Origin: Arthrobacter sp.
Lineage (GTDB): Bacteria > Actinomycetota > Actinomycetes > Actinomycetales > Micrococcaceae
Direction of reading: 5' to 3'
Length of the DNA stretch: 64,000 nt
NCBI GenBank assembly: GCA_023264815.1
Contig: JAHFUZ010000005.1
Coordinates: 65,842-129,841, forward strand
The notes under the pieces: model-generated
The model's input: only the letters and a program-made list of their open reading frames with translations
What the model was told of the DNA's origin: nothing
The model's database searches: none
Made by a program: the position numbers and the translations under genes
Part shown: in pieces, positions 21,349-34,164 of the stretch
Numbering within the stretch: the stretch's first letter is position 1
How the letters are laid out: the number at the start of each line of letters is the position of its first letter

Positions 21349-22044
21349 GTGCGGCGTCCAGTCACACGATCCTGGGGGGCCACCATTTCCAATGAACGCA
21401 TTTCCTTCACGTCTCTTGTCAGCCAGGCCCATCCAGCGGCAACCCGCTGGAGGGAACGCGAACTTGCCGTTTTCCGGGCGGCTGTGCAGCACGGGCATGT
21501 CTCGGCACTCGCATCGCTCAGTACGCGGCACCGGCCGGCAGGCATCGATCAGCTGCCTTCCGGCGTGCCCGTTCAGGCGCAGCGGCCCCCGGCAGTGCAT
21601 CAACTGGTCCGCCGGATGGATCACTTCAACCAGCCGCTGGTGGTCTGGCGCCTCATCTCGGGAAACCACCGGGAGCTCGGACGGGGCGTGGGCCTCTTTC
21701 CCAGCTACGCCGCGGCCGCCGCACATGCCGCGGCCATTCAGGGCCACGCCAGCGAACTGATCGTGACCTTCATCCAGAGCCAACCGGCCCGGCAGTTCGG
21801 GTGGTACGCCACCTACCAGGATCGTCCGGTTCTGATGGCCAGCGCGTGGTACCCCACTGTCCGTGACCGGGACCGCAGCGCGCAGGCCGCACTTGACCTG
21901 CTCGGCGGCGCGCGCCTGCTGACCACAGTCATCCGCCACGGCCACCGGCATCTTCCACTGGAACTGGCCGTCGAACCGGACCATGCCACAGCATCTGGCC
22001 CGGAACGGGCTCCCGGCGGCCCCGTGGAGGCATTTTCACCATAA
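21349..22044 (+). CDS. Hypothetical protein, possibly with a DUF1508/YegP-like repeat; start uncertain
   Basis: GC-rich third codon positions favour this plus frame, at least from about 21590. ...VVWRLISGNHRELGRGVGLFPSYAAAAAHAAAIQGHA... loosely resembles YegP repeats. The competing minus-strand ORF 21337-21984 was rejected. Confidence 0.35.
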   Translation: MRRPVTRSWGATISNERISFTSLVSQAHPAATRWRERELAVFRAAVQHGHVSALASLSTRHRPAGIDQLPSGVPVQAQRPPAVHQLVRRMDHFNQPLVVWRLISGNHRELGRGVGLFPSYAAAAAHAAAIQGHASELIVTFIQSQPARQFGWYATYQDRPVLMASAWYPTVRDRDRSAQAALDLLGGARLLTTVIRHGHRHLPLELAVEPDHATASGPERAPGGPVEAFSP

Positions 22045-22055
22045 GTTCACCTGTC
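22034..22055 (+). promoter_or_regulatory. PHO-box-like pair of 11-nt direct repeat units upstream of the first PstS-fold gene
   Basis: tttcaccataa|gttcacctgtc: TTTCACC and GTTCACC start exactly 11 nt apart, 85-100 nt upstream of the ATGs at 22140/22155. Confidence 0.4.
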
Positions 22056-22139
22056 CGCAGCTTGTTCTTAGCCAGGCAATTCAAGCTGCCGGACCGCACC
22101 GCCGCAGACTCAAAGCCGCACATCCACACGCAATCCAAG

Positions 22140-23273
22140 ATGGGGAATCCTGACATGAAATTGAAGTCCTTCCGGGCTGTTGGCGCAGTCTGCGCCACGG
22201 CCCTGGCACTTGGCCTGATCAGCACTTCCAGTGCCTCCGCAGAACCCTCGACGCCGGACCGGGCCTTCGCCGCGGTGGGCTCCGACACTATCCAGGACGT
22301 CTGGAACGGGCTGACGAACAACGGTCCGGTCAAGTCCGTAGCCTCCTTCGACGCCTTCGGCGCACCCGCAACGATCGTGACCAAAGCCGGGGCAACACCG
22401 ATCACCCGCCCCAATGGCTCCGGTGCCGGCGTCAAGGCCCTCAGCGCCAGCCTGAATCCGCTCAACCACGTCTACAAGGACTCGGCCAACAACTCCTTCA
22501 CGCTGAAGAAGAACGACGTGGACATTGCCCGGTCCTCATCCTCGCCGAGCGTTGCCGGTACGGACCTGACGTTCCTGCCGTTCGCGCGCGATGCCGTGAC
22601 CGTGGCGGTCAAGGACTCCGCGAACAACCCGCTCAGCCTCACCACCCAGCAGATCGCCAACATCTTCAGCTGCACGGCCGGCGATGGCGTCACGATTGAC
22701 GGCGGCACCGGAAAGCCGATGCTCGGCGGCATGGTGTTCACGCCCAAGCTCCCCCAGGCTGCCTCCGGCACGCGCGGGTTCTTCCTCAAGGCGATCGGCG
22801 TCACGCCGAACACCACCTGCATCCCCAACGCCGAGCAGGCCTACCCGGAAAACAGCGGCGCAGCACTGGTCAACAACGGCGACATCATCCCCTTCTCAGC
22901 CGCACAGTGGATCGCACAGAAGAACGGCGCCATGACGGACACCACCGCCGCCGGCCAGCTGCTTGCGGACATCGATGGGCTGAAGGCCGTTGCTCCCGGT
23001 ACCGTGGCTCCGGCGCTGGCTCCCGGCGACCTGTACGGCGACGCCGCCGTGGCGCCCGCCAGCGGAAAGGGTATTTTCGCCCGCGACACCTACAACGTGG
23101 TGGCCAGCACCACCCAGACCAGCAAGCTGATTTACAGCCTCCTGCTGGGCAATTCCGTGTCCACCAACCTGAAGACAATTGGCAGCAAGGTAGTCATCAA
23201 CAAATTCGGTTTCAAGACGCTCTCCTACGTGGGCGACTGGACCTATGGCAAAAAGTCCGGGTACACCAACTAA
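22140..23273 (+). CDS. Secreted PstS/PBP_like_2-fold substrate-binding-type protein with no membrane anchor
   Basis: Signal peptide MKLKSFRAVGAVCATALALGLISTSSASA with no lipobox. PBP-type motifs are AVGSDTIQ, RPNGSGAGVKAL, DIARSSS, LSLTTQQIANIF and ASGTRGFF. The start is ATG 22140 or 22155. Confidence 0.8.
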   Translation: MGNPDMKLKSFRAVGAVCATALALGLISTSSASAEPSTPDRAFAAVGSDTIQDVWNGLTNNGPVKSVASFDAFGAPATIVTKAGATPITRPNGSGAGVKALSASLNPLNHVYKDSANNSFTLKKNDVDIARSSSSPSVAGTDLTFLPFARDAVTVAVKDSANNPLSLTTQQIANIFSCTAGDGVTIDGGTGKPMLGGMVFTPKLPQAASGTRGFFLKAIGVTPNTTCIPNAEQAYPENSGAALVNNGDIIPFSAAQWIAQKNGAMTDTTAAGQLLADIDGLKAVAPGTVAPALAPGDLYGDAAVAPASGKGIFARDTYNVVASTTQTSKLIYSLLLGNSVSTNLKTIGSKVVINKFGFKTLSYVGDWTYGKKSGYTN

Positions 23274-32543: not shown

Positions 32544-32568
32544 TGAAAATGCCACAGAAAGAACTGCC

Positions 32569-33432
32569 ATGACCCTGCACTCATCCTTCGGCCAAGCACT
32601 CGCCGTCTTCGACCTGCCCGAGGGCGACGTCGTCCCGGATCCGCTCGCCGGGAGCGAAGCGGCCGAGCTGGACGCCAGGTCGGTCAGCGCCTGGTTTGGT
32701 GAACGCAAAGTCCTGGACCGGGTCTCCCTGACCATGCCTGCGGGGCAGGTCACGGCCCTGATCGGCCCCTCGGGCTGCGGCAAGTCCACGTTCCTGCGGA
32801 TCCTCAACCGGATGCATGAGATGGTGCCCACGGCCTCGCTGGCCGGGGAGGTCCTGCTCGACGGGGCGGACATCTATGATCCGGGCCGCCGGGTTACGCT
32901 GGCCCGCCGCAACATCGGCATGGTCTTCCAGAAGGCCAATCCGTTCCCGGCCATGTCCATCTACGAAAACACCATCGCCGGCCTGAAGCTTGCCGGCATC
33001 AAGGCGGGTCGGGAAGAAAAGGACTTCCTGGTGGAGGATTCCCTCCGCAAGGCATCGCTCTGGGAGGAGGTCAAGGACCGGCTACACCAGCCCGGCGGCG
33101 GCCTCTCCGGCGGCCAGCAGCAGCGGCTCTGCATTGCCCGCTCCCTGGCGGTCTCCCCCCGGGTGCTGCTGATGGACGAACCGTGCTCGGCCCTGGACCC
33201 CACCTCCACCCGGCGGGTCGAGGAAACCATCGCCTCCCTGCGGGGACTTGTTACGGTGGTCATCGTGACGCACAACATGCAGCAGGCCGCCCGGATTTCG
33301 GACACCTGCGCCTTCTTCCTTGCCGCGCAGAACACTCCCGGCGCCATCGTGGAGCACGGGCCCACGGACGCCATGTTCCACCACCCACAGGACCAGCGCA
33401 CCAGCGACTACGTGAACGGACGCTTCGGATAA
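32569..33432 (+). CDS. pstB: Phosphate import ATP-binding protein PstB
   Basis: Walker A GPSGCGKST, MVFQKANPFPAMSIYEN, signature LSGGQQQR, Walker B LLMDEPCSALD, and the C-terminal ...SDYVNGRFG hallmark of PstB. Confidence 0.93.
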   Translation: MTLHSSFGQALAVFDLPEGDVVPDPLAGSEAAELDARSVSAWFGERKVLDRVSLTMPAGQVTALIGPSGCGKSTFLRILNRMHEMVPTASLAGEVLLDGADIYDPGRRVTLARRNIGMVFQKANPFPAMSIYENTIAGLKLAGIKAGREEKDFLVEDSLRKASLWEEVKDRLHQPGGGLSGGQQQRLCIARSLAVSPRVLLMDEPCSALDPTSTRRVEETIASLRGLVTVVIVTHNMQQAARISDTCAFFLAAQNTPGAIVEHGPTDAMFHHPQDQRTSDYVNGRFG

Positions 33433-34164
33433 ATGCGGCGGGCCAGAACAGCCGCCGCACGCGGACGCCGTCGGGTCCTGAACATTGCCGCGGCAGCGCT
33501 GACGACGCTGGGCCTGGCGGTGGTGCTCGTCTACGGTGTCCCGCTGCTCAGCGGGACACCGCCGTTGCTCGCTGTCCCGGGCCAACCCTCCGGGCCCGCG
33601 CCACGCCCGGCTGTAGACGGGACTGAAGGCGCGGCGGCCCCGCTGGTGATCGGGACACCTGAAGAGGCTGAATCCGTGGCAGCCCGCGAGCTGGTGCGGA
33701 CCCCCGCACGGCCCGGCCAGCCGGTGCGGGTGCAGCTGCCGCGGCTGGGTATGGACATCCCGGTGCTGCCCATGGCGCTGCCGGCGGACCGCCGCGTCAA
33801 CCCGCCGTCGAACGGGTTCGCGTACTGGATCAGCGATTTTGGACCGTCCGGCTCCGGTGCGACCAACACCACCTATCTGGCCGCGCACTCGTGGAACCTG
33901 GGATATTCGGCGTTCAACGGCCTGATGGACATTGCGGCCGGCACCGGCAGGGTGCAGCAGGGCGACGCCATCCTGGTCACCACCCCGGAAGGCGTCACCA
34001 GCTACACGGTGACGGGCGCGGGCGGCTACGTGAAGACCACCCTGGGGCAGCAGCAGAACCTGTGGGACGCCGTGCCCGGCCGGCTGGTCCTGCTGACCTG
34101 CTTCCAGCTCAACGATGCCGGCGCCAACGAAAACTACATCGTCTACGCCGAGCGGACCTCCTGA
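33433..34164 (+). CDS. Class F-like sortase (transpeptidase) with the catalytic His and Cys present
   Basis: N-terminal signal-anchor VLNIAAAALTTLGLAVVLVY, then ...VQLPRLGMDIPVLPM..., TTYLAAHSW (His), GDAILVTTPEGVTSYTV and GRLVLLTCFQ (Cys). The start codon directly abuts the pstB stop. Confidence 0.82.
   Translation: MRRARTAAARGRRRVLNIAAAALTTLGLAVVLVYGVPLLSGTPPLLAVPGQPSGPAPRPAVDGTEGAAAPLVIGTPEEAESVAARELVRTPARPGQPVRVQLPRLGMDIPVLPMALPADRRVNPPSNGFAYWISDFGPSGSGATNTTYLAAHSWNLGYSAFNGLMDIAAGTGRVQQGDAILVTTPEGVTSYTVTGAGGYVKTTLGQQQNLWDAVPGRLVLLTCFQLNDAGANENYIVYAERTS

Follow-up and report, generated by a model that had tools for sequence, protein, structure and literature searches.

Closest described systems

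Accounts of phosphate uptake in actinobacteria centre on PstSCAB, an ATP-binding cassette (ABC) importer reported as universal in this group, and on Pit (PMC7866108). Here, we describe a locus of related but distinct composition in a 64,000-nt stretch of an Arthrobacter sp. genome (contig JAHFUZ010000005.1, positions 65,842 to 129,841), referred to below as the window. The locus comprises nine co-directional genes, all on the + strand between positions 22140 and 34164 of the window according to the list of open reading frames (ORFs), and we name their products g1 to g9. We consider it rather probable that these genes specify an auxiliary ABC importer of the Pst type, which takes up phosphate, is induced by phosphate starvation and belongs to a conserved seven-gene family of actinobacteria.

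The locus shares with the canonical PstSCAB systems, such as those of E. coli, M. tuberculosis (Pst) and Streptomyces (SCO4139-4142), homologues of PstC, PstA and PstB and a PstS-type binding protein, as well as an upstream PHO-box-like element and the translational coupling of its genes. It differs from them in its gene order and in the C-terminal transmembrane (TM) helix that its binding protein carries in place of a lipobox. It also includes two additional conserved PstS-fold proteins, one of which is 923 amino acids (aa) long with a degenerate pocket, an obligatory pseudo-sortase gene before pstB, and a PstA with extensions at both its N- and C-termini. Furthermore, its PstS, PstA and PstB components fall just below the NCBIfam equivalog cutoffs.

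A second point of comparison is provided by the class E (housekeeping, LAxTG) and class C sortases of actinobacteria. The pseudo-sortase, g7, shares with them the beta-barrel fold, the N-terminal TM anchor, the GxGH...PG...G motif and the Arg that follows the TLxTC strand; class E is the NCBIfam model that it matches best, and among PDB sequences SrtE of S. avermitilis ranks first. In contrast to these enzymes, the g7 family has Arg instead of the catalytic His and Ala instead of the catalytic Cys, possesses two extra C-terminal membrane helices (LLPNLL), and is always located inside an ABC importer operon; g7 itself remains far under every sortase subclass cutoff (52 vs 160).

The heme-uptake locus Isd of S. 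aureus encodes wall-anchored receptors, its own sortase, SrtB, and the ABC importer IsdDEF. It resembles the locus described here in combining an ABC importer with several surface capture proteins of a common binding fold and, for the lineage of the window, in having a sortase of its own (g9) along with a putative substrate for it (g2). The two differ in their ligand and fold, which are heme and NEAT in Isd and predicted to be phosphate and PstS here; moreover, the conserved sortase-family member of our locus is dead, and its main receptors are carried on membrane helices instead of being linked to the wall. By analogy, an Isd-type relay of ligand could operate between the surface receptors and the importer. 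Among actinobacteria, the znu cluster of C. diphtheriae is also a nutrient-regulated ABC importer locus with anchored capture proteins (PMC12445094), and only one of its extra membrane or wall ligand-binding proteins has a sortase signal. Its ligand, however, is zinc, its binding motifs are unrelated, and it has no sortase-fold gene.

A sequence-only reading of the window had recognized no described system with such an architecture. Likewise, we found no description of the cassette or of its pseudo-sortase in the full-text literature, and the cassette is not described in a 2021 review of actinobacterial phosphate transport (PMC7866108); it is apparently undescribed. Our findings suggest that a transporter has taken over the sortase fold for a non-enzymatic part, and a pseudo-sortase subunit of this type may be new in kind. 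If true, it would provide the first example of a pseudo-sortase whose role is defined, would give a catalytically dead sortase its first functional context, and would represent a new kind of ABC importer accessory subunit. The cassette as a whole would add a third, widespread phosphate uptake system beside PstSCAB and Pit. Its C-terminal tethers would constitute a second solution, besides lipoproteins, to the problem of retaining binding proteins and reaching through a thick wall without an outer membrane.

Conservation and organization of the seven-gene cassette

A scan of 185,579 species genomes identified at least 203 with relatives of g7, a lower bound limited by the search pattern. For comparison by tblastn of g1-g9 we used 83 loci, comprising 80 kept from the 203 scan genomes and 3 obtained from encoding-contig look-ups. 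Where individual loci are cited, L004-L007 include Pseudarthrobacter loci, with L007 being an Arthrobacter metagenome-assembled genome (MAG), L015 is from Psychromicrobium, L001 and L024 are from Streptomyces, and L002 is from Nocardioides.

Seven core genes, namely g1, g3, g4, g5, g6, g7 and g8, are present on one strand and within 9-12.6 kb in all 72 full-length loci. The carriers fall into six lineages, namely Micrococcaceae (Pseudarthrobacter/Arthrobacter, Sinomonas and Psychromicrobium), Nocardioides, Streptomyces, Planotetraspora, Actinacidiphila and an Acidimicrobiaceae MAG. Two gene orders were observed: g1-(g2)-g3-g4-g5-g6-g7-g8-(g9) in Micrococcaceae and Nocardioides, and g4-g5-g6-g3-g1-g7-g8 in Streptomyces. 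In both, g7 is immediately 5' of g8 (83/83 loci), so that the synteny survey suggested by the sequence-only reading places the sortase-like gene next to pstB in every locus. These comparisons show that g1 and g3 are conserved equally with the rest of the seven-gene family. Public gene names are uninformative, being limited to “hypothetical protein,” “sortase” and “substrate-binding domain-containing protein.”

Within the window, the junctions were read directly. ATGA overlaps occur at 27593-27596, 29890-29893 and 31581-31584, a 3-nt gap (GCC, 28613-28615) separates g4 from g5, and the stop codon of g8 meets the start codon of g9 as TAAATG (33430-33435). The ORF list and this direct reading agree with the gene coordinates and junctions reported initially, and the Pst motifs quoted at that time are present where they had been placed.

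Some of this evidence could be read more simply, as an ordinary high-affinity pstSCAB locus with unrelated neighbours, in which the sortase-like gene is a decaying relic without a role. Public annotation of the locus does list PstC, a PstA-family protein, a phosphate ABC ATP-binding protein and a sortase; a PHO box lies upstream; and tblastn of g1-g9 detected no second pst set within the 64-kb window. We nevertheless regard such a reading as extremely improbable. The extra genes accompany the Pst homologues in 72/72 loci across orders, in two gene orders that are each internally fixed, and the binding protein is not a lipoprotein. The sortase-like protein g7 is strongly constrained, with its former active site as its most conserved segment. 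The cassette, moreover, occurs in only about 203 species genomes (again a lower bound), against a universal PstSCAB (PMC7866108). An identification of the cassette as the canonical pst system was rejected, as it is both too rare and too elaborate. Because PstSCAB is reported to be universal in actinobacteria and the cassette is rare, the locus is most likely an additional, auxiliary system.

The translocator and its cognate binding protein

The PstC permease g4 (27593..28612, + strand) contains six hydrophobic segments and passes the PstC equivalog cutoff, with 244.1 bits against the 196.45 required by TIGR02138. The PstA-family permease g5 (28616..29893, + strand; TIGR00974, 190.1 bits vs 193.45) and the PstB-type ATPase g8 (32569..33432, + strand; TIGR00972, 339.7 bits vs 343.2) narrowly miss the cutoffs of the models that are their best hits, as does the binding protein g6 (TIGR00975, 187.1 vs 205). 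In g8, which also matches ABC_tran (E 3e-34), direct reading shows a Walker A motif (GPSGCGKST) and an ABC signature (LSGGQQQRL). These profile matches show that g4, g5 and g8 are homologues of PstC, PstA and PstB, predicted to form the translocator. The sequence-only reading had called them genuine Pst parts, a statement that stands with PstC above the NCBIfam cutoff and the PstA- and PstB-like best hits just below theirs.

The permease g5 has two features outside the span of the PstA model TIGR00974. The first is an N-terminal extension of ~110 aa with extra hydrophobic segments, and the second is a cytoplasmic C-terminal motif, SRRDLPRIE, located in the last ~60 aa and conserved from Micrococcaceae to Acidimicrobiia (also in L002, L001 and L083).

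The PstS-type phosphate-binding protein g6 (564 aa; 29890..31584, + strand) matches PBP_like_2 at E 6e-35 and aligns with PstS-3 of M. tuberculosis at E 2e-25. To examine its pocket, g6 and 78 orthologues were aligned to an E. coli PstS sequence whose numbering reproduced the published ligand residues T10, F11, S38, D56, R135, D137, S139, G140 and T141. The corresponding positions are kept or conservatively replaced in all 79 sequences, as T/S10, W11, S38, D/E56, R135, D137, S139, G140 and S/A141. The alignment identifies g6 as the cognate PstS, predicted to be phosphate-competent. Phosphate as the ligand, one of the options named initially, is supported by these positions together with the PHO box.

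The way in which g6 is retained at the cell surface departs from that of a typical Gram-positive PstS. Its signal peptide ends in an AQA-A site of the signal-peptidase I type and has no lipobox, and an Ala/Gly/Pro-rich low-complexity linker of ~130 aa precedes its C-terminal TM helix. According to the tail alignment, every lineage has a juxtamembrane P-V/T-x-T/V...GW..Q segment followed by a TM helix with a conserved Pro, and an LPXTG-like pentapeptide is absent from the g6 tail in every lineage aligned. These sequence features show that g6 is predicted to attach to the membrane through a C-terminal helix and a long flexible linker, not through a lipid anchor.

A catalytically dead sortase fold

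In the membrane pseudo-sortase g7 (320 aa; 31581..32543, + strand), an extracellular domain of sortase fold lies between an N-terminal TM helix and two conserved helices at the C-terminus, which end in LLPNLL. The fold assignment is supported by both sequence and structure prediction: g7 matches PF04203 with 52.0 bits (cutoff 26.6), and all 50 listed Foldseek hits of its AlphaFold2 (AF2) model, whose mean predicted local distance difference test (pLDDT) score is 85.5, are sortases.

Alignments to the PDB sequences of SrtE and SrtC both show that the catalytic His and Cys are substituted. For instance, Arg157 occupies the position of the catalytic His (VLMGRAAAYGG vs VAGHRRTYGD in SrtE), and Ala216 occupies that of the catalytic Cys (LTLTTA vs LTLVTC). 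Arg replaces the catalytic His in 203/203 relatives, and the catalytic Cys has become Ala in 201 of them and Ser in the other 2; the sortase Arg, which is Arg228 in g7 and follows the TLxTC strand, is retained in 197. Because both catalytic residues are replaced throughout the family, g7 cannot be a transpeptidase. Judged from these alignments, it is a pseudo-enzyme with a true sortase fold. Activity of g7 as a sortase through other residues was considered and ruled out, as both catalytic positions have been lost family-wide.

The former active site has not been released from constraint. Segment 136-166, which contains it, is the most conserved part of g7, with 3.68 bits per position, compared with 3.1-3.3 bits in the neighbouring β-strands and mostly 2.4-3.0 bits in the other segments, and 26 residues are invariant in a 42-sequence family alignment. 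This pattern argues for a retained binding function and not for decay. The site is rich in Arg (R140, R141, R157 and R228).

The sequence-only reading had listed two sortase-like genes in the locus. Both g7 and g9 do pass the Pfam Sortase model; the loss of the catalytic His and Cys from g7, however, had not been noticed.

Additional PstS-fold proteins

In the secreted protein g3 (923 aa; 24825..27596, + strand), a Cys-rich N-domain (~aa 46-348) is followed by a domain of PstS fold that carries large insertions (~aa 349-830), then by an Ala/Pro linker and a TM helix at the C-terminus. No Pfam domain was found in g3, and its PstS fold was recognized by hhalign, which aligned residues ~349-854 with PstS at E 1e-13 to 1e-17, and by Foldseek, for which the top hits of the AF2 model (pLDDT 82.7) are all PstS chains (E 2e-8, TM-score up to 0.75). 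In the hhalign alignment, the phosphate-ligand positions of g3 are replaced. Its tail is a TM helix with a basic end (RGRRR in the window), which in Micrococcaceae is preceded by TA[RA]T[GS]SAWPQ, a segment not found in Streptomyces. This family alone exceeds 1000 clusters, with 1055 at 50% identity (E<=1e-30) among 1.84 billion proteins, and it carries neither a Pfam domain nor an informative name.

The N-domain of g3 (24960-25868, aa 46-348) has six invariant cysteines and is predicted with high confidence to be beta-rich. Its profile gave only chance hits against PDB sequences (best E 0.78), and the domain has no Pfam match.

The third member of the group, g1 (377 aa; 22140..23273, + strand), is a secreted soluble protein of the PstS family (PBP_like_2, TIGR02136-like), with a signal peptide and no anchor. 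It matches TIGR02136 at E 5e-5, PBP_like_2 is matched by 8/16 of its orthologues (best E 6.5e-11), and its family profile matches P. aeruginosa PstS (4omb) at E 4e-4. The GSDT, GSG, ARS and SGT motifs are invariant among the orthologues. When hhalign was used to compare g1 directly with the g6/E. coli PstS profile, no significant match resulted (E 0.2), so that the assignment of g1 as a binding protein rests on the Pfam hits of its orthologues and on the PDB profile hit.

In Streptomyces, the g1-type domain is fused to Big_3_5 immunoglobulin (Ig)-like repeats (L001 7918-9912 and other Streptomyces loci), and in Nocardioides a separate Big_3_5 protein adjoins g1 (L002 1-864, 1007-2908). Both arrangements tie g1 to the Ig-like slot that is held by g2 in the window, a hint from gene fusion and adjacency that g1 may work with an Ig-like partner.

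None of the three binding proteins has the lipobox Cys expected of a Gram-positive PstS lipoprotein. The only Cys in the g1 signal peptide, in AVGAVCATAL, is not in a lipobox context and is not present in orthologues. The sequence-only reading had proposed three PstS/PBP_like_2-fold paralogues without lipoboxes, and this description holds for g6 by sequence, for g3 by hhalign and Foldseek and, with weaker support, for g1. Its broader proposal of a dedicated, multi-component capture-and-import locus with a non-canonical Pst gene order is likewise supported; the locus has three extracytoplasmic proteins of the PstS fold, and none is a lipoprotein.

The retention of three divergent PstS-fold proteins together in every locus raises the question of whether the substrate, or the ligand that is captured, might be something other than free orthophosphate (Pi), with g1 and g3 serving as specialised receptors. 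The remodelled pocket of g3 is compatible with this idea, as are the D56E and T141A replacements in g6 of the window's lineage and the scores of PstS, PstA and PstB under their equivalog cutoffs. The Arg-rich former active site of g7 could, in addition, bind anionic polymers. Candidate ligands would then be a phosphorylated polymer or ester, such as teichoic-acid fragments, polyphosphate or nucleic acid, or another tetrahedral oxyanion, although we judge both the general idea and these candidates to be unlikely. The PstS ligand set of g6, including R135, D137 and S139-G140, is found in 79/79 sequences, and PstC is above its equivalog cutoff. Among the loci compared, moreover, the cassette has no conserved gene for a phosphodiesterase, nuclease or phosphatase.

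A lineage-specific sortase and its putative substrate

Two genes of the window lie outside the conserved core. The first encodes g2 (404 aa; 23374..24588, + strand), a secreted beta-sandwich/Ig-like protein that is lineage-variable and was found only in Micrococcaceae. It contains a Pro/Thr-rich linker, two LATTG motifs (aa 250-254 and 366-370), a TM helix and an RRRK tail. Its C-terminal LATTG-helix-RRRK arrangement passes the LPXTG-anchor models PF00746 (20.2 vs 20) and TIGR01167 (17.4 vs 15.9). The C-terminal LATTG is, however, not conserved in the nearest relatives, being LAASG in L005 and FGAAA in L004 and L006. A match between g2 and the Nocardioides Big_3_5 protein is confined to 20 Ig-like residues (E 0.019).

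The internal LATTG of g2 follows the Pro/Thr-rich linker, ~110 aa before the TM tail, a position that does not fit a canonical sorting signal; it is kept as P-[LV]-ATTG in the g9-bearing relatives. In L007 (1816-2990), the g2 orthologue is recovered in two high-scoring segment pairs with a premature stop after the Pro/Thr-rich linker, and represents either a frameshift or assembly error, or a pseudogene.

The second gene encodes g9 (243 aa; 33433..34164, + strand), an intact class F-type sortase that matches PF04203 with 46.7 bits (cutoff 26.6). Direct reading shows that it keeps the His of AAHS, the Cys of LVLLTC and the downstream Arg in YAER. Its orthologues carry the NCBI name class F sortase, and its score against the NCBIfam class F model NF033748 is 30.7 bits, below the cutoff of 166; no PDB sequence match was obtained at E<=0.01.

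The sortase g9 was found in only 5/83 loci, L004-L007 and L015. A TM tail on g2 occurs in all 5 loci with g9 and in none of the 7 Micrococcaceae loci without it; in the Arthrobacter and Sinomonas loci that lack g9, g2 ends in Ig-like repeats. The combination of g9 with the g2 tail is a lineage-specific add-on, not part of the core cassette.

This distribution bears on the proposal, made in the sequence-only reading, that locus-encoded sortases position the extracellular components. In its full form, the two sortase-family proteins would covalently attach g2, g3 and g6 to the wall, producing a wall-tethered phosphate capture apparatus. As that reading had noted, three proteins of the locus (g2, g3 and g6) do end in a hydrophobic helix and a basic tail, one of them, g2, with an LATTG that passes the anchor models. 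The Micrococcaceae g3 tail TA[RA]T[GS] loosely resembles LAxTG, and g9, with its His, Cys and Arg, is paired with the TM-tailed g2. We still consider covalent attachment of all three proteins to be very unlikely. The catalytic His and Cys are gone from g7 in essentially all 203 relatives, and 78 of the 83 loci have no g9, yet the tails of g3 and g6 are conserved everywhere. These tails are conserved TM helices without an LPXTG-type pentapeptide, given that g6 has none in any lineage and the TA[RA]TG of g3 does not extend to Streptomyces; even the C-terminal LATTG of g2 decays among its closest relatives. A regular-expression scan for LPXTG followed by a helix and a basic tail, covering all ORFs of the 83 loci, returned chance hits only. 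The proposal that sortases of the locus position its extracellular components is not upheld.

PHO-box-like elements and a proposed mechanism

A PHO-box-like direct repeat, TTCACC-N5-TTCACC (two 11-nt units), is located at 22035..22051 on the + strand, ~90-105 nt upstream of g1. It is the sole exact match to this pattern in the window, and 0/100 shuffles contain one. L004-L007 share the repeat upstream of g1, and so does Psychromicrobium L015, with a g1 that is only 44% identical. The repeat agrees with the PHO box described as an 11-nt direct repeat, for which the S. coelicolor core is GTTCACC (PMC4415409; PMC2691820). Across lineages, the first operon gene is preceded by [GA]TTCAC in 53/68 loci, compared with 7.4% of background windows, a comparison whose statistical significance is inflated by the shared ancestry of the loci. 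Additionally, direct reading identified a single GTTCACC unit at 24655..24661 (+ strand), 170 nt upstream of g3, and a GTTCACC-like unit lies at -173 to -213 from g3 in 4/11 Micrococcaceae loci, which is weak evidence for a second element.

In Streptomyces, a conserved block is found ~100-160 nt upstream of the pstC-like gene (e.g. L024 ~820-900). It contains [GA]TTCAC[CGA]-N4-nTCCAY, and ~40 nt further on comes GGCCATTGACTCTCC. In sequence, this block resembles a PHO box that precedes a -35-like TTGACT.

If the locus is an auxiliary phosphate importer, as we favour, PhoP-type regulators would switch it on when phosphate becomes scarce. An outer capture layer in the thick wall would be formed by g1, g3 and an Ig-like partner, which would be g2 in the window or Big_3_5 proteins elsewhere, and g6 would deliver Pi to PstCA. 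The pseudo-sortase g7 would act as a non-catalytic subunit whose conserved former substrate groove holds a partner beside the permease, for which the most plausible candidate is the conserved segment that g6 or g3 has next to its membrane helix. Processing of g2 by g9 would be an addition confined to the lineage of the window. A more specific version, which we put forward tentatively, is that the g7 groove, with Arg157 and Arg228, might grip the juxtamembrane segment of g6 or g3 and thereby assemble a relay g1->g3->g6->PstCA across the wall. With such a grip, g7 could be likened to a sortase arrested on a sorting signal that it cannot cleave.

Several points weigh against the favoured reading. 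Apart from the common ancestry that underlies the PHO-box counts, PhoP binding in Micrococcaceae would be an extrapolation from Streptomyces. The g6 protein of the window has Glu at D56 and Ala at T141, and because three of the four Pst equivalog scores are just under their cutoffs, the substrate could differ from orthophosphate. Finally, the roles suggested for g1, g3 and g2 derive solely from conservation and gene fusion. The compactness of the locus and its predicted induction by low phosphate make the proposal directly accessible to genetics and to structural work on the complex.

Other features of the window

Between g2 and g3, a hairpin with a 15-bp main stem followed by CCUUUUCC is located at 24595..24633 (+ strand). 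Its folding energy is -28.2 kcal/mol (z = -3.57), and 0/200 shuffles fold equally well. It is a probable terminator or attenuator; of the hairpin and T-run described initially after g2, the hairpin proved to be strong and the U-run short. No Rfam match was found in the window, and a generic promoter and terminator scan gave nothing above chance.

The genes that flank the locus are unrelated to it. Upstream are genes for an alcohol dehydrogenase, an aldehyde dehydrogenase, a GAF-domain regulator and a pyridine-nucleotide-disulphide oxidoreductase. Between the gene for this oxidoreductase (19711-21144, - strand) and the PHO box lies ~0.9 kb (21145-22034), in which overlapping ORFs of doubtful coding value are present on both strands and no Rfam match was found.

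Directly downstream, and convergent with g9, is a gene on the - strand (34173-35300) for a bacterial type IB DNA topoisomerase (Topoisom_I and Top1B_N_bact), which is followed by a gene for an EamA/RarD-type transporter. Beyond them, at 36358-40786, is a GABA (gamma-aminobutyric acid) or polyamine-type catabolic cluster, unrelated to the Pst-type locus, with genes for a class-III aminotransferase and an aldehyde dehydrogenase and a divergent gene for a PucR-family regulator.

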